NCBI GenBank assembly: GCA_012549035.1
Contig: GCA_012549035.1_4805.1
DNA from: a phage
Reading direction: 5' to 3' (one strand)
DNA length: 64,000 nt
The translations under genes were made by a program, and so were the position numbers. The notes under the pieces were generated by a model that searched no databases, was not told where the DNA came from, and was given only the letters and a program-made list of their open reading frames with translations. Positions within the stretch are counted from its first letter, which is position 1. The number at the start of each line of letters is the position of its first letter. Of this stretch, positions 13,231 to 57,560 are shown piece after piece.

Positions 13231-13617
13231 TCAAGTAGACACTGGAAAGCTTTGTTTTACTTCCACGGCAAGGCAAGACGTCCAACCATCTTGGTCAAAC
13301 CATGTCGTTTCATCTTCCATCTTGTACGTTTTGCCACCAAACACAAAATAGTCGCCGGAAGCGTCGCGGTCAAGGTCAACAATGTCTTTGTCCACCCAGA
13401 TTTTGACATAGTTCTTTTGAAGCTCTAAACCAAGCTCAACGTATTGGTTTCGAAGTACAGCCTGCACCGAAGCAAGTAAGGTGATTGGTTCTTCATATGT
13501 AGTGACATAGTTGCGCATTTTATCAAGGGTGCGCCCCTTGTACATGTAATATTGAATCGGTTGGCGACCGATAACCTTTGTCGCAACTCGATATAAGTTT
13601 ACGCCAGGAATCCTCAC
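13231..13617 (-). CDS. Hypothetical head-tail joining protein
   Basis: 128-aa ORF. Confidence 0.45.
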   Translation of the reverse strand: MRIPGVNLYRVATKVIGRQPIQYYMYKGRTLDKMRNYVTTYEEPITLLASVQAVLRNQYVELGLELQKNYVKIWVDKDIVDLDRDASGDYFVFGGKTYKMEDETTWFDQDGWTSCLAVEVKQSFPVST

Positions 13618-16437: not shown

Positions 16438-17856
16438 TTATTCCCCTTTCAACCAAGCTTCAAATGCTTCGTCAGTTGCTGCAGAATCCGCAGCGGCCTT
16501 TTGTTTTGCGACTACACGCTGTTTTTGACCGTGTTCAACGCCGCGCAGATAATTATCCACAACGTCAAACTCAGCACCATCAACGCACTTCAAGCCTAAC
16601 TTTTTAGCGCCATATTTCGCTACGGACTTGGAGTCCATAGTTGCATGATCAAAGGCACCAACAACTTTAGACAGGCGCTGGTAGAGGCTATTCTTACGAG
16701 CAGAATCAGCGTAGAAAGCAGCAACTGCTGAATCAGATGCCATTGAGTGTTCCCCTTTTGCTGGACCTGGCGACGCTTTCGCCGCTTTTGTCGGTTTGTC
16801 ATCTTTTTCGACCGAAGCCCCCTTTACGTTGCTGTTTTGCAGGCCGCTAACCACATCTTCAGCTTTGTCGCAAGGTGATACATCTTCAGCCTTGACTTCA
16901 ACTTCTTCGTCTTTGACTTCGGCTTCAACTTCTTCTTCATCACCTACCGCGCCACCTTTCAGTTTTGCAATAAGTGCTTCGATTTGGCTGATCAATTGCG
17001 GAAGTTCGCCGCCAGCGTGAGATTCAGTTTCAACTTCAAACTTCTCTTCACCTTCTGGGGTTTCTTCTGCTTCTGCCTTGACTTCTGGATCAACCATTAC
17101 TTCTTCACGATTTTCGGTTGAGTCCTTCTCTTCTGCTTTCACTTCAACTTCATCCTGATGAGCAGCTTCAGCACTCTCTTCGTTCAGAAATTGTTCGAGC
17201 GCAGGGATCAGTGATTTCAGCTGTTCAACAGCATTATCACGCGCTTTACCTTTTAACGGTTTTGGCATGTCTAAATCCTCGTTGGATGGTGTTACAGTCG
17301 TCAAACAAAGATGGTCAAAGCAACGACCATCCAGCACCCGTGCACCTGGTACTCGACCAACGTCCACGAGAGCAATGTGGTTGCCGCGAAGAGTTGTCTG
17401 CACCACTTCATACGGCTGCCCGTCAAACTCTCCAGACTGTATGATGAATTCACAGTCATAGCCCAAAGACAAGTCAACCTTTCCAGAATCAATGGCCTTC
17501 TTCAGACGACGGCTAAACACTTTAAGGTCGCCGCGCATCCATGGCTTGTCATAATAAACATTGCCAGTCAGAACGCCATCAACTCCATACTCTTCGGGTG
17601 CTGTGTTATCCTCATCACCTTCAAATCCAGAAAGCATTTCGTGATTGTCGATGAAAGGGATATTTTTGAATGAATCTATCGCTTCGGGGTCTTTCACCGC
17701 TGACTCAGGGCGATAGACTTTTACGATGCGATTCGGATCACCATCAAGACCAACTTGACCAGCAGAATAATCAAAAATGCCAAATGACGAAATTGGACAA
17801 CCCATAATCGTCAAGAATCCATTTTTGTCAATTTCGCGTGCCGTTTGCATTCGCAT
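16438..17856 (-). CDS. Prohead protease / scaffolding-like protein with acidic coiled-coil region
   Basis: 472-aa ORF; Glu/Lys/Ala-rich central region typical of scaffolds; GAGGGTGG SD; alternative ATG at 17850. Confidence 0.45.
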   Translation of the reverse strand: MRMQTAREIDKNGFLTIMGCPISSFGIFDYSAGQVGLDGDPNRIVKVYRPESAVKDPEAIDSFKNIPFIDNHEMLSGFEGDEDNTAPEEYGVDGVLTGNVYYDKPWMRGDLKVFSRRLKKAIDSGKVDLSLGYDCEFIIQSGEFDGQPYEVVQTTLRGNHIALVDVGRVPGARVLDGRCFDHLCLTTVTPSNEDLDMPKPLKGKARDNAVEQLKSLIPALEQFLNEESAEAAHQDEVEVKAEEKDSTENREEVMVDPEVKAEAEETPEGEEKFEVETESHAGGELPQLISQIEALIAKLKGGAVGDEEEVEAEVKDEEVEVKAEDVSPCDKAEDVVSGLQNSNVKGASVEKDDKPTKAAKASPGPAKGEHSMASDSAVAAFYADSARKNSLYQRLSKVVGAFDHATMDSKSVAKYGAKKLGLKCVDGAEFDVVDNYLRGVEHGQKQRVVAKQKAAADSAATDEAFEAWLKGE

Positions 17857-17968
17857 CCACCCTCAAATAAGTATTGTGTATTATATCTAATGAAAAAAAC
17901 TTAGGCAAACAATAATTATGGTTTGAATATGTATAACAACCGATATAGCCGCGCCTTTATTAGTGTGA

Positions 17969-18193
17969 TACGGATGATACGGATAAAATGAGGCGTATTT
18001 TTATCCGTATCGGTGTATAAGCCGCGCTATCACTGGTGTGCTACGGATGATACGGATGATACGGATACTTTTCATATATAAGAGTTTATAAAAAAAAATA
18101 AAATTAAATTATATATATAATTTTAAATTAATTTATTTGAATTCCTATATAGTACGGCGGCAACGCGTATCATCCGTATCATCCGTAAGATTC
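17969..18193. repeat. Iteron cluster R1 (GATACGGAT-type 9-bp units) flanking extreme AT-rich tract
   Basis: GATACGGATGATACGGATA (x2), inverted TATCCGTATC, CTACGGATGATACGGATGATACGGATAC (x3), AT-rich 18075-18150, then 29-bp GCGTATCATCCGTATCATCCGTAAGATTC (18165-18193) identical to 34419-34447. Confidence 0.6.
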
Positions 18194-18273
18194 TTTTGAA
18201 AACAATAACTTACTTGATACGTATGATACGTCATTATACGTATAAAACTCGCGGCAATCCTTTGCCGATGAAT

Positions 18274-18421: not shown

Positions 18422-19342
18422 TTAGTTCAGCTTGATTGCGGTGATCTGTCCGTAAACGGTAGATGTCAATGCCTCTGTGCATTGATAGTTTAGATACACG
18501 TTGCCAGGCGCGGCAAGAGTGATTATCTTTGTTGGAATATTGCCGCCGAAACGACCTGCAGCCCGAATGCCAGCTGACATCGTAAATGCATCATCCGTAA
18601 TATCTGAATCGCTTGTTGACAATTTGGCTGTAATTCCGGTATTCGCTTGAATTCCTGCTGTCGCGACAGTCAACTGACTTGCCGTCACAAGCCACTTTCC
18701 TGCAGGAAGGTTTAAGGTCGCCAGATTAACCAAAGTGGTTGGAGGATTGCTAACACTGTTCGTGGCACTCTGGACGGTGCTTTCCGCTGCGTTAAGCACA
18801 CCGGAACCATCAATTGATAGAGTTGTACCGACCTTTACGCCGCCTAAAGTAGATGCTGACGCAATCGGCAATGAGTATTGAGTAACGCTAATTGTACCGT
18901 CACCTGCGACGCTTATTCCGCTTCCTATTTTGACGCCGCCGAGAACAGAAGCCGTTGCCGCTGGTAACGTGTATTGGTTGCCGCTTGATTTGACCACTTT
19001 AACGGCGACAGCATTCTTTGACCCTCCAGACTCCATTCCTATAATCACTGCTTCTCCAAAAGCGATGGTGATTGTAGATGCAGTTAAACCAGTCTGCACG
19101 TCTGTTATGTTCATTTTGGGAACTGAAAGTGTCAGATTCGGCTTGCTGGTAGAATCGCCATCATTACCGATCATAAAGAATTGACCAACTGAATTGTATC
19201 CAGACGCCAATGGCGGACTCAATGGAACAATCAGGTTTTTATCGGATGTAAATTCTGAAACAATCGCCAAACCGTTAGCATATACAGCAGGCAATACTGG
19301 CGTTTGTCCAGATAGAGGAAACGTGCTGATTGGTATCGTCAT
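18422..19342 (-). CDS. Virion protein with Ig-like/fiber repeats (head fiber or decoration, putative)
   Basis: Repeats LPAATASVLGGVKIGSGISV / LPIASASTLGGVKVGTTLSI; ATG at 19342 with GAGGT SD avoids overlap with MuF-like gene. Confidence 0.5.
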   Translation of the reverse strand: MTIPISTFPLSGQTPVLPAVYANGLAIVSEFTSDKNLIVPLSPPLASGYNSVGQFFMIGNDGDSTSKPNLTLSVPKMNITDVQTGLTASTITIAFGEAVIIGMESGGSKNAVAVKVVKSSGNQYTLPAATASVLGGVKIGSGISVAGDGTISVTQYSLPIASASTLGGVKVGTTLSIDGSGVLNAAESTVQSATNSVSNPPTTLVNLATLNLPAGKWLVTASQLTVATAGIQANTGITAKLSTSDSDITDDAFTMSAGIRAAGRFGGNIPTKIITLAAPGNVYLNYQCTEALTSTVYGQITAIKLN

Positions 19343-19349
19343 AATGACC

Positions 19350-20201
19350 TCAAATGATTGGTATTTTTCTGCACTTGCAGTGTATTGCCCATCCAGGAGG
19401 ACCGATGTCACCCTTTTTGAACTTCAATTCGCCGCCAACTTCCCATAGGCGCTTGTCATCAAGTTTGAATCTCATTCCGTCGACGTGTTCATGAGAGATT
19501 CGCGGCTCCTTTCCTGCTCCTGAGTGCGCCCACTCAAATTCTTCGACTCCATTCTGGCGCATCCTTTCATCGCTTAGAACGCAATACAATTTGCTTGTCT
19601 GGTCTTTAGCGATCAAGTCGACTCTCTTTGCAGAGAAGTGTTTTACGTTTCGCAATGCCGCCTGAATGCCTGACGTGCCTTGCTGGGCTGGGTCGGGAGA
19701 AGTCAGCGAAAGCATGACTGCTTCGTACACTCTGTTGTGAATATCCTCGCCGACCTTAGTCACTAGAGTCGTGTTAAACTTCTCGCTTGTTCTAAGAGTG
19801 TTCTCAACGAATTTGTTATATGTGGCCTTTGGCGCTTCTATGCCTGCGGACTTAAGGCTTGCGAATGTAGCAGAAGTGGCACCCTTTTCGACCGATTTGA
19901 TAAAATCAGCGGCAATCTTCGACCCAACACGTGCAAACGCCTTTGCCCATTTCAGTTGCAGCCGTTTCATAAGGGTCTGGAATGTCGAATCAGCAGAGTC
20001 TTGCGCAAAAAACTTCTGCACCTGCTTCTTGTCAAGCCATTCTGAAATGCCTGCCTGATAGTCATCAATCATCGCATAGCAAAGACCTTTCATCTCACGA
20101 CGATAGGCCATCGCGATTGCGTTGGATGGGATTATCGGACTGCCGCGCCCGACTCTATCGGGTAAGCGGCGTTCACGTTTTTTCGAAGCTTTAAAAGCCA
20201 T
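19350..20201 (-). CDS. Head morphogenesis protein (Mu F / SPP1 gp7-like)
   Basis: C-terminal HVDG...PPGWAIHCKCRKIPII resembles conserved MuF-family motif; directly downstream of portal; ATG at 20201. Confidence 0.6.
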   Translation of the reverse strand: MAFKASKKRERRLPDRVGRGSPIIPSNAIAMAYRREMKGLCYAMIDDYQAGISEWLDKKQVQKFFAQDSADSTFQTLMKRLQLKWAKAFARVGSKIAADFIKSVEKGATSATFASLKSAGIEAPKATYNKFVENTLRTSEKFNTTLVTKVGEDIHNRVYEAVMLSLTSPDPAQQGTSGIQAALRNVKHFSAKRVDLIAKDQTSKLYCVLSDERMRQNGVEEFEWAHSGAGKEPRISHEHVDGMRFKLDDKRLWEVGGELKFKKGDIGPPGWAIHCKCRKIPII

Positions 20202-30893: not shown

Positions 30894-30956
30894 ATTCGAA
30901 AGCGAATGATTCGACGCATAATAATATGAAGCACAATGATTCGAAAGCGAATGATT
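30894..30956. repeat. Direct repeat TTCGAAAGCGAATGATT x2 (46-bp spacing) in untranslated gap
   Basis: Identical 17-mers at 30894-30910 and 30940-30956; each contains cgaat-N-attcg inverted motif. Confidence 0.6.
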
Positions 30957-33536: not shown

Positions 33537-34010
33537 CTAGTGGCGGGAGAATTGCTCACCCTCTTTGGCCGCCTCTCCAAAATCCTTGTAGAAATCGTCC
33601 ATGGAACGGCCCATTTTACTATTGCCATTCTCATCAATCATCGTGATGCCGTAGATGATATTCAGTTCACGAATGGCATTAAGCTTGGCTGATGCCGCGA
33701 CTTCTGGATCACGCACAAGCTTCACTAAATTGTGAATGGAACTCTTTACACTCCACAATTCCTTCAATGGCATCTCTTCCATACGCTTTTTGTAGCGCAT
33801 CTTGTAGTACGGATTGCGTTGCGTGCAGAGGATTCGCTGGCCAGTGTAGTTATCGGTCGCAACCTCCATGCCAAATACTAGTGCAAAAGCTGCGCGCATG
33901 TCATGGCCCTGAATAACAAGGTCAATGAACTCATCGAATAATGCCTGATTATGCTCTGCAAATCGCGGGTCTTCAAAGTCTTCAGGCATTGCTACATAAT
34001 CTTGACTCAT
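33537..34010 (-). CDS. terS: Terminase small subunit-like protein (putative)
   Basis: About 157 aa from ATG 34010 (MSQDYVAMPEDFEDPRFAEHNQALFDEFIDLV...); N-terminal HTH-like segment and ..AKLNAIRELN.. recall Terminase_2-type small subunits by memory; track N-terminal extension rejected. Confidence 0.45.
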   Translation of the reverse strand: MSQDYVAMPEDFEDPRFAEHNQALFDEFIDLVIQGHDMRAAFALVFGMEVATDNYTGQRILCTQRNPYYKMRYKKRMEEMPLKELWSVKSSIHNLVKLVRDPEVAASAKLNAIRELNIIYGITMIDENGNSKMGRSMDDFYKDFGEAAKEGEQFSRH

Positions 34011-34062
34011 AGTGCAAATCCCATAGTGCAAATTAATAGTGTGAATTATACAATGATTGAAC

Positions 34063-34091: not shown

Positions 34092-34237
34092 ATTGGCTGT
34101 AAACGTACATAAATCATAGTGCTGAATGAATATCGGACCGTGGTGCGTGGTGTACTGTTTGATACGTATAAAAGAAATCCATCCCTTTCGCCGCTTGTTA
34201 TGCAAATCAATGACTTAGCCGCTGCTGGCTGGTTGAA

Positions 34238-34513
34238 GCGTATCATGACGTATCATCCGTATTGCCGCAAGTCTTTGTTTTTACTTATATCTTACGGATA
34301 ATACGTTAAATATATAAATTAACATAAGTATGAGGATGTAGAAAAAAATTAATTTAAATTAATTCAAAATGGAGTTAATTAATTTTTGAAATAATTCTGG
34401 TTACAATAAGGAAAAATGGCGTATCATCCGTATCATCCGTAAGATTCAGTGTACAAATCCAGGCGCGGCGCACCCTAGCGCCATGATACGGATAAAAACC
34501 TATCCGTAAGAGT
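34238..34513. repeat. Iteron cluster R2 (GATACGGAT / ATCCGTATC 9-bp units) flanking AT-rich tract
   Basis: GTATCATGACGTATCATCCGTAT, TTACGGATAATACG, 29-bp GCGTATCATCCGTATCATCCGTAAGATTC (34419-34447), inverted pair TACGGATA-N6-TATCCGTA; AT-rich block 34305-34410. Confidence 0.6.
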
Positions 34514-34741
34514 GTACGCTTCAAGCAAAGAATCCAGGCGCGGCGCGGCTTTCGCCACCACACACCACGGTTCACTCTCCAAAATCCGCACACTAAATTC
34601 CAAAATCCAATGCTCATACTCCAAAAATAAATCAAAATTTCCATTTTATTTATTATTTTCATCCACAATATCCTAAATTCTATCCGTATCAACCATGCCT
34701 CAACCCACCACTATTCACGCCACTCACTTCAAAATTTCCAT

Positions 34742-41957: not shown

Positions 41958-42605
41958 TTATCCTGTGGCCTGCATATTGCGTACATACTTCTGCTCTAAT
42001 GAATAGATGAAGTCGGCGACAGTCAATCCCTTCGTGTGCCATTCATACATGGTGAAGCCTGTATTCAGGAAATAGCCGCGCACCTTGTCCATCGCTTCAG
42101 CTTCCTCCATTGAAGCCATCAGCGCGGCGACGTTGTCATAAGAAGGCACAAATCCCTTCTTGCGTAGCGCATTGCGCAAATCTTTAGTTCTGAAGCCAAT
42201 CTTGCAAGGGTCATCGCGGCCCGTGGATGATGCAACCTTTGGAAGAGCAAGGAACTCTTTGAGGAACATTGCAATGTTCAAGTCGCCTGCATCATCAAGC
42301 TTCTGGATTCGGTTGCGACCGCGACCCTTGAATTCACTCGCACGAGGGTGAGCGCCAAAACAGTGCGCCCCTTCCAGTTTAGGGTCAATGATCATCACAT
42401 CTTTCCCAATGCGCAGCTCTACGTAGTAAAGATAAGACTCATCGACAAGCTTTGTGCGCTTGCAAGTGATTGAGTCCTTATCATAACCAAAGCCGCGCAA
42501 CACGGTTGAGATCATTCGGTTCATTTCTTCGCCGTGAACGTCACTTTCTTTGTTCAGTTCACCAAGATGTTGAAAGAATTTAGCGATGTTGATTGCTTTA
42601 TTCAT
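41958..42605 (-). CDS. Hypothetical protein
   Basis: 215-aa ORF overlapping primase-helicase stop. Confidence 0.55.
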   Translation of the reverse strand: MNKAINIAKFFQHLGELNKESDVHGEEMNRMISTVLRGFGYDKDSITCKRTKLVDESYLYYVELRIGKDVMIIDPKLEGAHCFGAHPRASEFKGRGRNRIQKLDDAGDLNIAMFLKEFLALPKVASSTGRDDPCKIGFRTKDLRNALRKKGFVPSYDNVAALMASMEEAEAMDKVRGYFLNTGFTMYEWHTKGLTVADFIYSLEQKYVRNMQATG

Positions 42606-44275
42606 CAGAATTCATCCTTATCTCTTCCCAAAGAACGTTTACGCTCAATAACCTTCTTCAAGAATTCAATATCTTCAGGGTCAGACTCATCGCGGATAAG
42701 ATACGCTAAGATGGTCATCAAATCAGAAATGTATTCTCCTGCTTCATTCTTAATCAGCGGCGTAAAGTACCCGCGCTGGTTGCGATAGGTTGCAGGCTCA
42801 AAACCAAGCTTCGACATGTGCGGCGCAAGGGTACGAGAGAAAGGCGACTTGCCACACTTCGCTCTGAATCCCATAGCAATAGCGCCACTGGTGATGTGCC
42901 AGCGTCCGCTGTGATGTCGGTCATAAGGCGCGGTGATGACGACTTCAACAAGGTCGTTGTCGACCATCTCATCACGGATAACGCCGCGCGCACGTTCCAT
43001 TTCGTTCTTGCTGAACTCAGTAAGCATGCGAGATGTTTCACCAACAAACGCGTTATAGCCTGCTTCGCCGTGCTTCTCCATCCACGCAGCGCACTCAGCC
43101 ATAAGCTGCCAAACGTCTTCTTTCAAAGTGGAAAGGTCGGCTTGGAAGTCCTTAGACCAGTTCGGTTGCCCGTCCTTGTCAGCGAGTTGGCCAACAAAGA
43201 TAGGGTACACACGACGGTTGCCCGTGTCGTCACGCTGCATGCCTGCGTATTCGTTGCCGTCCATGATCGCAATCCACTGGCGTGGTTTAACCTGCGTATC
43301 TTCAAATTTGAAGTCCAGGTCATCTTCCGTCTTAGTCAGGAATGCTTTCATGTTTTCGATGTCGGCCTTTTTAAAGCCTGTCATCTCGCCAACGTTCGCG
43401 ATAATTGAGCGACCCGTGATAGCTCGCAAGAACGGGTTGAAGTTTTGCGCGGCTAAGTTCAACGGAATCGGTGTTGCGTGGCGGTCGTTCATAATAGCTT
43501 CGCAAAGCAGCTTGCTAAAATAACTCTTCCCTGCGTTCTGGCCGCCGATGAGCGCAATGGAGATTGGCGCTTGACAGCCAGGGTTGGTCAGGCGGTTGTA
43601 GAGCGATAGCCAAAAATACACACCGATTTGTCGGTTTAACTCTGTATCGAACGGTCGGAATAGCTCGATAAGGTATTTCTCGATGCGCGCAGTACCGTCC
43701 CATTCAGGCAGCTTCTTGTAGAAGAAGTCCATCAGGTCGTCGCGCTGATAACGCATGGCCCATTCCTTATAGGATTGAGCGACCTGACGTGAGTTTGGGT
43801 TGGACAACCCTGCTGCGTCGACAGCGGCAACTATCTCTGTGACTTCCAAGGTACGGTCAGTGAATGTTTCGCCGCGATGGTCGACTAAGCGCCCACGAAA
43901 AGTATCTTTGTGAGGGAATGGAACAACGCCACTTCCCTTATCAAACAACGCGTCGAACACCGCATAACGGTTCATGTCACTCGTCCGGTCTGCCTGTAGA
44001 ACGAAGTCATCTTTAGTCGGCTTGTAGTGAGGGAACTTGATTACCTGAAGTGAGGCGAGCAAGCGTGCTCTTTCAACCAAGTCTTCTTCACCGTAGCATT
44101 CCATGCGCTCTGAATCTTTTTCAACGGCTTTATGTTGAAGGCTGATTTTAGCTCTGGTGCCTTGCTGCTCTGCTGCCTGCATTTCTTCCGAAACACCTGC
44201 ATCTTGAATTTCGTCAAAGATTGCACCAAATTCATCACCTGTATCCTCTGGAAGATTGTCATTATTAATTGACAT
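42605..44275 (-). CDS. SF3 primase-helicase (D5 / P4 alpha C-terminal type, putative)
   Basis: 556 aa; Walker A GGQNAGKSYFSKLL; acidic N-terminus; size and motifs fit phage/plasmid primase-associated SF3 helicases. Confidence 0.6.
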   Translation of the reverse strand: MSINNDNLPEDTGDEFGAIFDEIQDAGVSEEMQAAEQQGTRAKISLQHKAVEKDSERMECYGEEDLVERARLLASLQVIKFPHYKPTKDDFVLQADRTSDMNRYAVFDALFDKGSGVVPFPHKDTFRGRLVDHRGETFTDRTLEVTEIVAAVDAAGLSNPNSRQVAQSYKEWAMRYQRDDLMDFFYKKLPEWDGTARIEKYLIELFRPFDTELNRQIGVYFWLSLYNRLTNPGCQAPISIALIGGQNAGKSYFSKLLCEAIMNDRHATPIPLNLAAQNFNPFLRAITGRSIIANVGEMTGFKKADIENMKAFLTKTEDDLDFKFEDTQVKPRQWIAIMDGNEYAGMQRDDTGNRRVYPIFVGQLADKDGQPNWSKDFQADLSTLKEDVWQLMAECAAWMEKHGEAGYNAFVGETSRMLTEFSKNEMERARGVIRDEMVDNDLVEVVITAPYDRHHSGRWHITSGAIAMGFRAKCGKSPFSRTLAPHMSKLGFEPATYRNQRGYFTPLIKNEAGEYISDLMTILAYLIRDESDPEDIEFLKKVIERKRSLGRDKDEF

Positions 44276-45586: not shown

Positions 45587-46669
45587 CTATTTTATGCCAC
45601 CTGCACGACGATTTATCATGTCAAGTTGATTCTCAATATAAGGCATGACGATTGCTTCAACAAAAGCAGTCCAACCTTTCTTGCCTTCCCCTTTCCGGTG
45701 ACAGTCGTGGGCGCAACCGAACACAAATTCATGTTCTGCACCAGGGATAGGGCCGCGAAAGTAAGCGCCATACGGGTCGCCGTTGGTGTGCTCTTCACCC
45801 CAAGGACAGATTATGCGGCACTTGCCTGACATATTCTCGATGACGTCGCCATCAGACCCTTCACCCATCTTGTTGCGCGCTAGAATTTGCTGGGCTATTT
45901 TATACCAAACGGCATCATACTTGTATTCATCGACGTCAATTTGAATCTCACGCTTTTGCGGCATGACGACGTGAAAGCCAAATGCCTGACAAATGTCTTC
46001 GATGGTGTAGCGCAAGGAGTAGTCTGCATGGACAAGTCGGCAGCGGAACGGGTCGCCGTTCTCATCGACATATTTATAGGGGCCGTCGTGAGTCACACGC
46101 TTGTTATTGATGCACCCAGGAACACGGCCCACGCGCGTTACGTCTTTAATCGTGTTGTCGCCGCCCTTCTTGAGTACCATGTTAACGAAAGACCCAAGGA
46201 ACGCTTTGAACTGAATAAGATGGTCAATCGGTTCTTTAAAGAAGTACCAAAGCTGGTGGTTGTTCGGTGAAGTCTCGACGATGACAGTCGGCTTCAGTCG
46301 CTCAAAAAAGAATTCCAAATCTAAATCGCCTTTGGACCCTTTACCGTGACCGATGTCGTCGACCATCATCGCCATACCGTGACCAAAGGCCGACTCTGTA
46401 CGCCAGTATCGCATCTCACCCGTCTTTGGGTTGGGAGACTTACGCATTGAACTGATGCAAGCATAGCCGTTTTGGTGCTGCATGAGCGGCTTGCCCAACT
46501 TCCAAGGCTTAGGCCAGAAGCTGCTGTTAATCTTCTTGCCGCGCTCGTCAGTCTGCACCGTTGCTTCAGGAGCAAACACCGTCATGACGCGCTCATCTTC
46601 TGGGATGCCTCTTTGGAGTTCTGTTAAAAACTCTTCAATTATTTTTGCTTCTTCTCTTAAACTAGCCAT
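45587..46669 (-). CDS. Primase/replication-initiation-like protein with Cys/His zinc cluster (putative)
   Basis: 360 aa; first gene of minus-strand early operon; CPWGEEH...FGCAHDCH motif; family assignment tentative. Confidence 0.4.
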   Translation of the reverse strand: MASLREEAKIIEEFLTELQRGIPEDERVMTVFAPEATVQTDERGKKINSSFWPKPWKLGKPLMQHQNGYACISSMRKSPNPKTGEMRYWRTESAFGHGMAMMVDDIGHGKGSKGDLDLEFFFERLKPTVIVETSPNNHQLWYFFKEPIDHLIQFKAFLGSFVNMVLKKGGDNTIKDVTRVGRVPGCINNKRVTHDGPYKYVDENGDPFRCRLVHADYSLRYTIEDICQAFGFHVVMPQKREIQIDVDEYKYDAVWYKIAQQILARNKMGEGSDGDVIENMSGKCRIICPWGEEHTNGDPYGAYFRGPIPGAEHEFVFGCAHDCHRKGEGKKGWTAFVEAIVMPYIENQLDMINRRAGGIK

Positions 46670-54120: not shown

Positions 54121-54663
54121 GTGTTATTTCTCCCTTATGACTTCGAAACAACCGGATTAACCGTGCACCCGAAAGCGCCGCTTGGAATGCAGCCGCGCCC
54201 TATTGAATTTGCAGGCTTGCTGACAGACGGCAAAGAGATTCTTGAAACGTTTGAATTCATAATTAATCCTGAAATCGTGATCGAAGAAATCATCACAAAG
54301 ATTACCGGATTAACAAATGAAGACCTTGAGTGCAATCCACCGTTCATCAATTTCGTCCCGCAGCTAAAAGAAATCCTCAAGAAGACTGATGCAACTATCG
54401 CGCACAACCATGCGTTCGATAAAAACATTCTTGATTATGCACTACAGCGCGAAGGACTTACGCTTGATGATGTTAATTTTCCAGAAATAAACATATGTAC
54501 AGTTGAGCAAACCTTGCCTATTTTTGGCCGAAGAGTTAAGCTTCAAGAGCTGTATGAATTATATTTCGGAAAATATGAACAGAAGCACCGTGCATTAGAC
54601 GACGTAATATTACTGCACAAAGTCTGCCAACAAATTGGCGTATATGACATCTGGAGTAAATAA
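54121..54663 (+). CDS. DEDD-family 3'-5' exonuclease (DnaQ / epsilon-like)
   Basis: GTG start after AGGAGG SD; Exo I DFETTGL, Exo II AHNHAFD, Exo III HRALDDV. Confidence 0.75.
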   Translation: MLFLPYDFETTGLTVHPKAPLGMQPRPIEFAGLLTDGKEILETFEFIINPEIVIEEIITKITGLTNEDLECNPPFINFVPQLKEILKKTDATIAHNHAFDKNILDYALQREGLTLDDVNFPEINICTVEQTLPIFGRRVKLQELYELYFGKYEQKHRALDDVILLHKVCQQIGVYDIWSK

Positions 54664-57560
54664 TGTTTCCACAATTGAGAGTTCGCAGCGGTTACACGTT
54701 CAAAGAAGTTTATGGACGGCATCCTGAAATTATAGCACGGCTCAAAGAGTTGGGCTGCGAAGTCGCGGCATTAGTTGATAACAACACATGGGGTCACGTT
54801 CGCTGGGAAAAGGAATGCCAGAAAAATGATATTAAGCCTATGTTTGGAATGGAGATTCCAATCATCGACCCTGATGCGGACCCTAAAAAGGGATTCAAAC
54901 CGAAGGCTTGGATATTGGCCCTTGACTTAAAATCTTTTTACAACGCTACAACACTTTCAACGCAGCGCGGTGGACTTACCCGTTCAGAGTTCGGTGCGCT
55001 CGATGGCGTCGTTAAATTCTGTGGCGGTGCCGTGGAGTTGCTGCGGCCAGAGGACTACGACTATATAGACGTCAACCCATCATCGTTCCTTTTGGCAAAG
55101 CGCCAGGCATTGGCTCATCGTAGCAGTGGAAGGCCGCTGGTTTTAACCGGATACAACCACATGCCTTCACCTGAGCACGTTGACTTTGCTTATGCGTGGG
55201 AAGTGCGCGACACGGTCAAGCCGCACTGCATCGTTGACGCGGAAGACTTGCGCAAACAGCTTAAAGGCATCTTGACTGAAGATGAGCTCAATCAGGCAAC
55301 GGCCAATGCTGTTGACATAGCAAACGGCATAGTCGGACTTGACCTGAAATTACGCAAGGCACCGATTATTCACCTTGCTGGTGACATGGTAAAGCTTGCT
55401 CGCGAGGGTATGGAGTACCGTCTAAAAGCAGGTCACATCAAAGAATGGACTCAGGAATACGAGGACCGCTTCAACGAAGAAATTCACCAGATTCAGCTGA
55501 AAGATTTCGACTCATACTTTCTGGTGGTAGCGGACCTTGTACGATTCGCAAAAACAAAAATGCTCGTCGGTCCTGCGCGCGGCTCATCGGCTGGTTCACT
55601 TGTTTGCTATTGCCTCGGCATCACGGAAGTGGACCCAATCCCGTATAAGCTGCTGTTTGCCCGATTCATCGACGTAAGCCGCGCCGACCTTCCTGACATC
55701 GACATCGACTTTGAAGATACCAAACGCTATATGGTGTTTGATTATCTTAAAGAGAAATACGGCGAAATGAACGTTGCAAAGCTTGGCAACATCAACACGC
55801 TTAAGGCCAACTCAGTAATGGCTCAAGTTGGTAAGAAGTTCAACATTGGATACCACGAAACAGCCAACATTAAAAACGCACTGCTTGAATACTCATCCGG
55901 TGACGCCCGTTATGGTCACGGCCTGGAGGATACCTTTGCAACAACGACCACGGGTCAAGAGTTCGTGGCTAAATATCCCGATGCCGCGCGATGCATGGGT
56001 GACCTTGAGATTCACCCTTCCCACACTGGCGTTCACGCAGCGGGAATCATCGTGTGTAATGACCCAATCTCTGATTACTGTACTGTAACTGCAGAAGGGA
56101 TTGCGCAAATCGATAAGCCTGACAGCGAATACCTCAACCTTTTGAAGCTTGATGCACTGGGCCTTCGTACTCTCGGCATCATTTCTGATACAGGCGTCAT
56201 TGATGCTGAAACGCTGTACGGAATCAAGCTTGATGATCAAAGTGTCCTTGACATTCTTAATGAAAACAAAATGTCAGGCATCTTCCAGTTTGAAGGTGAT
56301 GCTGTACGCTCAGTAACAAACTTTGTGCACGTCGATAACTTTAACAAAATCGACAACCTGACGGCGTTGGGTCGACCTGGACCATTGTCATCCGGTATGG
56401 CCCAGAAATACATTGAACGCGCGGCAGGGCGTGCGCCGATTGAGTACGACGTGCCGCAGCTTGAGCCGTACTTGAAAGAGACTTACGGCGTGTTTCTTTA
56501 CCAAGAGCAAATCATGGCCGTGGTTAAAGAGATTGGTTCATTTGACTGGGCGAAAACATCCGCTGTACGTAAGGCGATGTCAGGCCGTAAGGGTGAGGAA
56601 TACTTTAACAAGCTTGGCGAAGACTTCGTTGCAGGCGCAATAAATAATGGCGTGCCGGAAGCGGATGCAAGAAAGCTTTGGCAGGCGATGGCGACGTTCG
56701 GGTCATGGGGCTTTAACAAGTCACACTCCGTGTCATACGCGGTCGTGACCTACTGGACCTTGTGGCTTAAACGACACTACCCGTTGGAATTTGCCGCTGC
56801 TTGCTTACGCGCTGCTAAGGACGAAGACCAGACGATTGCGATATTACGTGAACTTGCGAAGGAAGGCGTGGATTATGTGCCAATCGATCCTGATCACTCT
56901 TCAATGAACTGGACCATCGCTAACGGAAAGCTAATCGGCGGCATCATGAACGCTAAAGGGTACGGAATGGTGAAGGCGATGAAGTACATCGAAGCACGTG
57001 AAGCCGGAACCTTAACGCAAAAGCAGAAGGATGCATTGGCCAATGCTGAAGTCAAATACGGCGACCTTACAGAGATGCACACCAAGTTCGGCTGGGCATA
57101 TAATGACCCATATCTTATTGGCGTCACTTCCGGCGCTTCAATACGCCAGATGAAGGAAGTAGGCGATGATGAGCGTGCAATAGTAATCGGCAAGTTGACA
57201 AAGAAAGTGCTTGCGGACGAGAATGAAGCAACACGCATCCGTAAACGACTTGAGCGCGGCATCTATACAAAGCACGGCAAGCTTAAAAAGGGTCTTCAAG
57301 CTGATGGCCGCTACGCAGAGTTTGACCAGTACGGGAACAAGCTTGAGACTCAGTTCATCGACCTTATGTGCAAAGACGACTCGACCGACTCGCCAATGCG
57401 ATTCAGGATTCGTCCAGAGAAGTTCCAGAAGTACGGGAAGTACATCGCTGAAAACGTCGGGAACGGCGCATTCTTCCTGATGAAAGGTCGTAAGCTTGAA
57501 GGCATTGACATGTTCATTGTTGACGTGATCAAACAGGTGTACCCAGATGGCAACAAATAA
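54663..57560 (+). CDS. DNA polymerase III alpha-like (DnaE-family) replicative polymerase
   Basis: 965 aa; GSSAGSLVCYCLGITEVDPIPYKLLFARFIDVSRADLPDIDIDFE matches DnaE palm region; N-terminal PHP-like region lacks the usual His-rich motifs. Confidence 0.7.
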   Translation: MFPQLRVRSGYTFKEVYGRHPEIIARLKELGCEVAALVDNNTWGHVRWEKECQKNDIKPMFGMEIPIIDPDADPKKGFKPKAWILALDLKSFYNATTLSTQRGGLTRSEFGALDGVVKFCGGAVELLRPEDYDYIDVNPSSFLLAKRQALAHRSSGRPLVLTGYNHMPSPEHVDFAYAWEVRDTVKPHCIVDAEDLRKQLKGILTEDELNQATANAVDIANGIVGLDLKLRKAPIIHLAGDMVKLAREGMEYRLKAGHIKEWTQEYEDRFNEEIHQIQLKDFDSYFLVVADLVRFAKTKMLVGPARGSSAGSLVCYCLGITEVDPIPYKLLFARFIDVSRADLPDIDIDFEDTKRYMVFDYLKEKYGEMNVAKLGNINTLKANSVMAQVGKKFNIGYHETANIKNALLEYSSGDARYGHGLEDTFATTTTGQEFVAKYPDAARCMGDLEIHPSHTGVHAAGIIVCNDPISDYCTVTAEGIAQIDKPDSEYLNLLKLDALGLRTLGIISDTGVIDAETLYGIKLDDQSVLDILNENKMSGIFQFEGDAVRSVTNFVHVDNFNKIDNLTALGRPGPLSSGMAQKYIERAAGRAPIEYDVPQLEPYLKETYGVFLYQEQIMAVVKEIGSFDWAKTSAVRKAMSGRKGEEYFNKLGEDFVAGAINNGVPEADARKLWQAMATFGSWGFNKSHSVSYAVVTYWTLWLKRHYPLEFAAACLRAAKDEDQTIAILRELAKEGVDYVPIDPDHSSMNWTIANGKLIGGIMNAKGYGMVKAMKYIEAREAGTLTQKQKDALANAEVKYGDLTEMHTKFGWAYNDPYLIGVTSGASIRQMKEVGDDERAIVIGKLTKKVLADENEATRIRKRLERGIYTKHGKLKKGLQADGRYAEFDQYGNKLETQFIDLMCKDDSTDSPMRFRIRPEKFQKYGKYIAENVGNGAFFLMKGRKLEGIDMFIVDVIKQVYPDGNK

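Follow-up and report, generated by a model that had tools for sequence, protein, structure and literature searches.

An inverted-repeat element before the head protease gene of a Wifcevirus phage is an internal paralogue of the genome-end element and a candidate second replication origin

The DNA analysed here is a single stretch of 64,000 nucleotides (the window) from a Wifcevirus, a PB1-like E. coli myophage with a genome of ~68 kb. The element under study, R1, occupies most of a 420-bp gap between a 45-aa ORF and the head maturation protease gene, all on the minus strand. Across R1 the window is 99.5% identical to phage vB_EcoM_WFC (WFC below), and 29 Wifcevirus-related records match. R1 and its surroundings contain the following features.

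16438-17856, minus strand: head maturation protease gene, downstream of R1
17880-17908, minus strand: sigma-70-like promoter TTGCCT-17-TATAAT for the protease gene, downstream of R1 and outside the repeat array
~17947-18267: R1, the whole element, upstream of the head-protease gene
17947-17955, plus strand: GC block AGCCGCGCC, with a GCCGC pentamer
17966-17984, plus strand: two tandem 9-bp units (TGATACGGA twice; GATACGGAT twice at 17967-17984), the outer array on the protease side
17976-18011, no strand: 13-nt inverted pair GATACGGATAAAA and TTTTATCCGTATC with a 10-nt spacer
18003-18011: single inverted unit, the second arm of the 13-nt inverted pair
18020-18028: second copy of the GC block, AGCCGCGCT
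18039-18066, plus strand: three tandem units TGCTACGGA, TGATACGGA and TGATACGGA, adjoining the AT tract and oriented toward it
18074-18143, no strand: AT tract of 70 bp, 95.7% A+T, the proposed melting region
18157 and 18251: GCGGC pentamers on the degenerate-unit side of R1
18165-18193, minus strand: 29-mer GCGTATCATCCGTATCATCCGTAAGATTC, two inverted units oriented toward the AT tract
18215-18245, plus strand: degenerate outer units TGATACGTA, TGATACGTC and TTATACGTA
18252-18267, minus strand: terminator-like hairpin, the outer limit of R1, ending the upstream transcription unit (portal to small ORF)

The array consists of 13 units over 300 bp. The units read TGATACG(GAT), have a 9-bp period and a conserved core TGATACG, and face inward on both sides of the AT tract. 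An earlier note on this DNA had described tandem and inverted 9-bp units (two, one inverted, three) around a 70-bp tract of about 95% A+T. The units are present at slightly shifted coordinates, the first of the three tandem ones (18040-18066) being GCTACGGAT with one mismatch, and the tract measures 95.7% A+T at 18074-18143, the highest value of any 70-bp segment in the whole 64 kb. It is bracketed by a perfect 22-nt inverted repeat (18042-18063 and 18166-18187), and the single-strand DNA fold of R1 is strongly favoured (z = -7.15). The GC blocks AGCCGCGCC and AGCCGCGCT lie within a 38-nt direct repeat that precedes each R1 unit array. A known structured RNA was considered and rejected; the only Rfam matches are sub-threshold ones to plant miRNA precursors, and they arise from the long hairpin.

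The repeat motif is restricted to two loci and is not common throughout the genome. Exact GATACGGAT occurs 9 times in the 64-kb window against 0.36 expected, and only in R1 and at 34426-34690; the 7-mer TACGGAT occurs 22 times in the window, with 15 of the 22 inside the R1 and R2 loci. In Bas100, a complete relative of 68,486 bp, the motif clusters at the same two loci only, and a third R-type copy was found neither in the window nor in the complete Bas100 genome. A divergent region at 46.7-47.2 kb has promoters and no repeats. The 29-bp sequence that the earlier note saw recurring 16 kb away does so exactly: the 29-mer GCGTATCATCCGTATCATCCGTAAGATTC at 18165-18193 is identical to 34419-34447, on the same strand and 16,254 bp off. 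What recurs is part of an entire paralogous element, R2, whose locus has the following features.

33537-34010, minus strand: small terminase (TerS) gene, directly downstream of R2 (Mansfield annotation)
34140-34720, minus strand: R2, paralogue of R1, directly upstream of terS
34300-34415: AT tract of R2, ~115 bp, with units on both sides
34361-34381, minus strand: cut-site motif AATTAACTCC/ATTTTGAA, the slash marking the left physical end between 34371 and 34370

R1 and R2 align at 66-68% identity over ~200 bp, in both orientations. Besides the identical 29-mer (34419-34447), R2 holds GCCGC/GCGGC arrays and GT-rich and CA-rich outer arms. The profile of the adjacent TerS matches the TerS of phage E217 (PDB 7uxe) with an E value of 2e-61. 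The GenBank records of WFC and of phage Mansfield start at the identical base, ...AATTAACTCC/ATTTTAAAA, within the AT tract of R2, which places the left physical end in R2. A direct terminal repeat of 3,673 bp has been predicted for Mansfield by PhageTerm from sheared-DNA libraries (PMC6753283), and a "terminal repeat of about 3.7 kb" has been reported for WFC (PMC6563267). All Wifceviruses examined, and a sister lineage, have the motif AATTAACTCC/ATTTT unchanged in their R2. R1 does not have it, and none of the best 25 of the 29 Wifcevirus matches is a record that starts at R1. R1 is thus an internal paralogue of the terminus element R2. The other terminal-repeat boundary (~30.75-30.83 kb) differs between the WFC and Mansfield records, and the sequence around it (~30.7-30.9 kb) resembles neither R1 nor R2, whether in Wifcevirus or in the Serratia phage MTx (Myosmarvirus). 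A metagenome contig that ends in the R1 29-mer was considered as a physical end and rejected, since assemblers break at repeats.

To define how widely the pair is distributed, the regions upstream of the protease gene and upstream of terS were paired in 16 genomes of the wider PB1-like group, comprising Wifcevirus, Myosmarvirus, four Pbunavirus-size isolates and several metagenomic lineages. R1 and R2 match within the genome in 15 of the 16, in direct orientation, with 62-73% identity over 140-420 bp (E 1e-12 to 1e-36), and cross-genus R1/R2 controls gave zero similarity. These matches require a sensitive setting on the defined upstream regions; a strict self-BLAST of the loci within +/-10 kb of terL missed most of the pairs. 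In every lineage examined that has both elements, R1 and R2 lie upstream of the two late genes in the same orientation, and among relatives the highest A+T content within 20 kb usually falls before the protease gene or before terS. TerL is ~50-68% identical between these lineages. The blocks of 29-60 bp that are identical between R1 and R2 suggest gene conversion, which would be expected whatever the function of the elements; the similarity extends over 140-420 bp and includes the spacers, more than shared binding sites would need.

Eighteen elements from 9 lineages have a common layout, kept even where the sequence itself has turned over completely: GCCGC repeats, an AT tract, GCGGC repeats and inverted repeats that are specific to each lineage. 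GCCGC outnumbers GCGGC by 40 to 3 to the left of the AT centre, and the ratio is 1 to 52 to the right (Fisher 3e-22; 9 lineages). The pan-lineage pentamer has the consensus ~tCGCGGCAa and points outward from the AT centre. As a genome-wide polar motif GCCGC/GCGGC was rejected, being common and unpolarised in coding DNA; its polarity is significant solely at the R elements, across lineages.

The distant relatives show both the constancy of the layout and its limits. The protease of MTx is 53% and its TerL 68% identical to those of Wifcevirus. Its R1 has inverted 26-nt arms (ATAAAAACGAAAAGTAAAAAC...) around an AT tract upstream of the protease gene, in a sequence unrelated to that of Wifcevirus, and is 69% identical over 260 bp to the end/start junction of its own record, the match spanning the end. 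This junction is the start of a PhageTerm-predicted terminal repeat of 3,566 bp. The far inverted-repeat arm was not seen in MTx R2. Xanthomonas phage XcP1 (Carpasinavirus) has no R1 and a single R-type element, which lies beside the helicase gene and 3.1 kb from terS; a second copy is therefore dispensable.

The replication module of the phage encodes a RepB'-type primase, a Dda-like helicase and a VapE-like protein of 556 aa. Two of its genes bear directly on the R elements.

42605-44275, minus strand: VapE-like SF3 helicase (Pfam VapE-like), a predicted full-length structural homologue of SaPI1 Rep1
45587-46669, minus strand: RepB'-type (RSF1010-like) primase with a Cys/His-rich C-terminal part

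The VapE-like helicase matches PDB 7pds by sequence (phmmer, E 4e-11). The best Foldseek match of its AlphaFold model (pLDDT 89) is the same entry, SaPI1 PriRep1 with dsDNA (E 1e-16, TM 0.61). The alignment runs over ~479 columns, nearly the full chain (448-457 residues), and covers the whole of Rep1; 7pds leads the structural matches by nine orders of magnitude, with other SF3 primase-helicases next. In the model, residues 436-505 have the order H-E-H-H-E-E and appear winged-helix-like. The C-terminal part is the least conserved of the protein, with 55% identity to the sister lineage against 84% in the ATPase core. When the repeats and this C-terminal part were compared for co-variation in the sister lineage, the core TGATACG was common to both lineages. 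The VapE-like helicase is the proposed binding partner of the R repeats. The primase, which is 59% identical between Wifcevirus and MTx, may in turn read the pan-lineage GCGGC motif.

Gene order also links R2 to these proteins. The helicase gene is followed directly on its 3' side by R2 in Pbunavirus 14-1, Myosmarvirus MTx, Carpasinavirus XcP1 and 20 of the 27 non-Wifcevirus loci, and the primase gene lies upstream of the helicase gene, which with R2 gives the order pri-rep-ori. Wifcevirus has about twenty small genes inserted between the helicase gene and R2, which lie 8 kb apart; R1 is ~24 kb from the helicase gene.

The closest described system is the SaPI pri-rep-ori replicon, with its self-loading helicase-initiators Rep1 and PriRep5. 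SaPI Reps are helicases that double as initiators, and their C-terminal winged helix reads iterons of 5-6 nt (PMC9371898). The 6-12 iterons of a SaPI origin lie just downstream of rep, at least two of them on each side of an AT-rich centre and in opposite directions, and the model is that two hexamers load, one per side (PMC9371898). R1 similarly has three plus-strand units (18039-18066) and two minus-strand units (18166-18187) around its AT tract. The phage also encodes an SF3 helicase, a Rep1 homologue with a variable C-terminal domain that is predicted to be a winged helix, and for R2 the order primase, helicase, origin is found in most lineages. Unlike the SaPI origin, R1 is not adjacent to rep, and its units have a 9-bp period instead of 5-6 nt. 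The phage is a virulent myophage of 68 kb, whereas SaPI is a satellite; it carries two co-evolving copies per genome, 16 kb apart, and a second, pan-lineage array of GCGGC, and one of its copies, R2, contains the end of the packaged genome.

We put the probability at about 50% that R1 is a second, internal replication origin of the Rep type, the internal copy of a two-copy genome-specific element. In support of this, R1 has at least two opposed units on each side of the AT-richest tract of the window, which is the SaPI layout; the phage encodes a Rep1-like helicase; in most related lineages R2 adjoins the 3' end of the helicase gene and the primase gene lies upstream; and R1 and R2 match within genomes and share their layout across 9 lineages. 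The earlier note had recognized the layout of a replication origin in these repeats, and the comparative evidence (the SaPI-like arrangement, the Rep1 homologue and the position of R2 3' of the helicase gene) favours that suggestion. Its term "iterons" does not hold in the classical plasmid or lambda sense of direct, helically phased repeats of 17-22 bp. The R1 units differ from those of lambda ori and theta plasmids in that they are 9 bp long, contiguous and inverted about the AT tract. An origin of the host-DnaA type was also rejected, as R1 has no perfect DnaA box (the best has 1 mismatch), no IHF consensus and no GATC. GC skew, from which the location of the PB1-like origin was guessed in a recent paper (PMC12390725), was rejected as an indicator; its turning points at ~21, 34 and 47 kb coincide with changes of gene orientation, and in the window it tracks the direction of transcription and gives no origin signal.

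If R1 is an origin, we infer that the VapE-like helicase would read the TGATACG(GAT) units through its variable, putative winged-helix C-terminal domain. The inward-facing units nearest the AT tract would position two oppositely oriented complexes, one per side; the 70-bp tract of 96% A+T would open, the helicases would load, and unwinding would proceed in both directions. The RepB'-like primase and a DnaE-type polymerase would then begin synthesis. The outward-pointing GCGGC pentamers may act as priming or loading signals, a role consistent with their conservation beside a well-conserved primase. R2 would be the ancestral copy of the same device, in its place in the order primase, helicase, R2, terS, and in Wifcevirus and Myosmarvirus an extra terminase cut site in R2 would make the left end of the 3.7-kb direct terminal repeat.

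Several observations count against initiation at R1. The element is 24 kb from the helicase gene and not just 3' of rep, and its 9-bp period and 7-bp core contrast with the 5-6 nt of SaPI iterons. XcP1 does without R1 altogether. The similarity of R1 and R2, spacers included, suggests gene conversion, which would be independent of function, and GCGGC is common throughout the genome, its polarity being significant only across lineages.

Other replicons show some of these features in different combinations. Bacillus phage SPP1 has two homologous origins, oriL and oriR, with initiator-binding repeats by an AT-rich region, and, like the R pair, one of them lies in the replication module and the other among the late genes; unlike in our phage, the initiator G38P is not known to be an SF3 helicase, its boxes are not known to form inward-facing arrays around the AT tract, and neither origin is known to coincide with pac. 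In P4 the alpha protein, an SF3 primase-helicase with a C-terminal DNA-binding domain, reads short direct and inverted octamers at two separate loci, ori and crr, that lie kilobases apart. The two P4 loci, however, are dissimilar and both required in cis, neither is known to involve a packaging end, and primase and helicase are fused. The oriV of RSF1010, with the ssiA and ssiB sites of the RepB' primase, combines repeats, GC-rich and AT-rich blocks and a large inverted repeat with priming sites on opposite strands. The phage resembles RSF1010 in encoding a RepB'-type primase; the iterons of RSF1010, by contrast, are direct repeats of 20 bp bound by RepC, and its helicase belongs to another family.

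The only functional datum for this family of elements is the packaging end in R2. It points to terminase and counts against replication from R1. R1 could be a pac-like terminase-recognition site, bound by TerS or by TerS-TerL and left uncut, R2 having an extra cut site. Such a site might load or titrate terminase near the head genes, pair up with R2, or control how those genes are expressed. R1 is indeed paralogous to the region with the left physical end, at which WFC and Mansfield share their start base and MTx behaves likewise. In Wifcevirus, Myosmarvirus and Pbunavirus terS is the gene directly downstream of R2, and TerS evolves fast (35% identity between Wifcevirus and MTx), as expected of a partner to lineage-specific repeats. 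The cut regions of P1 pac and SPP1 pac have repeats on both sides, and gene 19 of T4 contains a second sequence that resembles a pac site. As in R2, the short motifs of P1 pac and of SPP1 pacL-pacC-pacR flank a cut region beside the small-terminase gene. R1 differs from these sites: it lacks the AATTAACTCC/ATTTT motif, lies 16 kb from terS, and contains no physical end in the listed records, with no record start among the best 25 of 29 matches. The lack in R1 of a cut-site motif, and of record starts among those 25 matches, instead supports the reading of R1 as an origin.

Further observations make a terminase site a somewhat unlikely explanation of R1. The other terminal-repeat boundary has no such repeats, and in XcP1 the R-type element stays by the helicase gene, 3.1 kb from terS. 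The symmetric, inward-facing layout, with ~250 bp on each side, has no obvious use in packaging that proceeds in one direction. The TerS of the Pbunavirus E217, a decamer (PDB 7uxe), showed no appreciable DNA binding in vitro (PMC9611059), which again favours replication over packaging. Reports on the genome ends of Pbunavirus conflict, an early study describing non-permuted linear genomes and later work finding no fixed ends and favouring headful packaging (PMC10913387, PMC12345254, PMC12390725); for the Pbunavirus phage Banzai, PhageTerm analysis gave no fixed genome ends (PMC12390725). The R pair is retained in Pbunavirus, where fixed ends go undetected, so the function shared by the two copies may not be end formation.

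Replication and packaging might also be joined, the R elements coupling the initiation of replication to the formation of the genome end, which we regard as clearly unlikely. The Rep-like helicase and the RepB'-type primase would then launch strand-displacement synthesis at R2 that duplicates the 3.7-kb repeat on concatemers, and terminase, cutting in the melted AT tract, would set the left end; R1 would initiate in the same way but lack a cut site. Phage T7 offers a partial likeness. Its genome has direct terminal repeats, its secondary origins phiOL and phiOR lie next to the genome ends, a further origin is internal, and the terminal repeat is believed to be duplicated by local DNA synthesis. 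The T7 origins differ in being RNA-polymerase promoters with an AT-rich stretch, the repeat is 160 bp compared with 3.7 kb, and the sites are not known to share extended paralogy.

It is quite improbable that R1 is instead the transcriptional control region of the protease-scaffold-capsid operon, R2 serving terS in the same way. A phage regulator would use the repeats as operators or as activator sites, and the AT tract would be an UP-like element, a bending element or a promoter. The elements do lie upstream of two late genes in the same orientation in every lineage, and a consensus scan places a good sigma-70-like promoter after R1, the sole good promoter there (17908-17880). The AT tract of the R1 homologue in the Pbunavirus JG024 was predicted to be a sigma-70 promoter (PMC3008698), which counts in the same direction. 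Transcription starts of phage 14-1 determined by ONT-cappable-seq (bioRxiv 10.1101/2023.10.13.562163, Tables S3, S5) bear on both copies. At R2, transcription into terS begins at P040 (59399), on the margin of the AT tract. The corresponding tract of the R1 homologue, however, has no start, and the proximal P014 (start at 13257), 65 nt before the protease gene, is the only one in the gap. This weakens the enhancer or operator array of a late promoter that the earlier note had offered as the alternative, and supports R1 as an origin. In addition, an element of this kind is lacking from the other late units (terL, portal), the protease operon of XcP1 is expressed in the absence of R1, the analysis yielded no candidate for the regulator, and 13 units over 300 bp with a 70-bp core of 96% A+T far exceed the known needs of an operator.

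It is highly improbable, finally, that R1 has no sequence-specific protein partner of its own and acts through its structure or in recombination, for example as a palindrome that forms a cruciform, as a region that insulates or terminates transcription, or as a hotspot of recombination, with gene conversion keeping it similar to R2. The perfect 22-nt inverted repeat with its strongly favoured single-strand fold (z = -7.15), the terminator-like hairpin at the edge of R1 and the identical blocks of 29-60 bp would fit this. Against it, position and architecture are conserved over deep divergence (TerL ~50-68% identical), the motif turns over from lineage to lineage yet stays the same in R1 as in R2, which speaks for selection by a binding protein that co-evolves with it, and the far inverted-repeat arm was not seen in every R2 copy, that of MTx being an example.

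In the literature we found no description of the R1/R2 pair, of its conservation or of how it relates to the genome end. Phages of the PB1-like group (Pbunavirus, Wifcevirus, Myosmarvirus and relatives) belong to those most used in therapy, and the pair provides a precise origin candidate for a group whose genome ends are disputed. It also marks sequences to retain when PB1-like genomes are rebuilt or engineered. An origin-type element tied to a terminal-repeat boundary bears on how long terminal repeats arise, and coupling of initiation to end formation, if true, would be a concrete mechanism for making long direct ones. Should R1 and R2 prove to be Rep-type origins, for which we see roughly equal chances either way, the combination of a SaPI-type self-loading helicase with an inverted-repeat origin would be extended from satellites to many virulent myophages.

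The repeat/AT-tract element R1 (17947-18267, in the gap before the head-protease gene) and its paralogue R2 (34140-34720, upstream of terS, and holding the left physical genome end) share a polarity, GCCGC / AT tract / GCGGC. Over both elements in nine lineages (loci L104-L148 and L186-L210), the ratio of GCCGC to GCGGC is 40:3 on the left of the tract and 1:52 on the right. Locally, the flanks have a G/C skew of the opposite sense, so the polarity is not explained by composition.

R2 also carries long arms of skewed composition that are absent from R1 (34456-34700 in the window, with equivalents in Serratia phage MTx, Pbunavirus 14-1 and Xanthomonas phage XcP1). In genome orientation, the arm on the early-gene side is GT-rich and that on the terS side is CA-rich. 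The arms contain short repeats, CCAAAAT in the window and CCCCAGAACAA four times in XcP1, and the window has a 16-bp direct repeat, AATCCAGGCGCGGCGC, at 34456 and 34531. A role for these arms in packaging is possible.

A 2.4-copy tandem repeat of ATAGTGCAAATCCA (34009-34041) overlaps the terS start codon; it reads TTGCACTATGGGATTTGCACTATG on the minus strand, and a pair of sigma-70-like promoters that overlap each other (34091-34045) comes before it. About four 15-bp units resembling AATGATTCGAAAGCG lie in tandem at 30894-30956; the right boundary predicted for the terminal repeat is approximately 70-130 bp away, with the array on the inner side. The terminal repeat is 3,784 bp long in the related phage WFC and 3,673 bp in Mansfield. 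When homologous positions are compared, the right boundaries in these two records differ by about 80 bp, and the right end therefore looks less sharply defined than the left.

The 68.5-kb metagenome contig IMGVR_UViG_3300045988_152943 (L008/L105) ends exactly in the R1 29-mer, a sequence with an identical copy in R2; the assembly most likely broke off at the R1/R2 repeat, and the contig end is then not a physical one. Just upstream of R1 lies the following gene:

18422-19411, minus strand, gene with a match to the Pfam head-fibre family (Phage_head_fibr, E 1e-7)

The Bas100 record labels it "tail fiber protein"; the Pfam match is consistent with the "head fiber protein" label of the WFH record.

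The RepB'-type primase (45587-46669, minus strand) has a Cys/His-rich C-terminal segment, CPWGEEH...FGCAHDCH, conserved in MTx, which looks like a zinc-binding module and could be a template-recognition domain.

The protease-upstream copy is absent from XcP1 (Carpasinavirus; L216, XcP1 54480-55000, and L012/L118), where a single R-type element, at a distance of 3.1 kb from terS, directly follows the helicase gene. XcP1 is a natural example of a one-copy genome.
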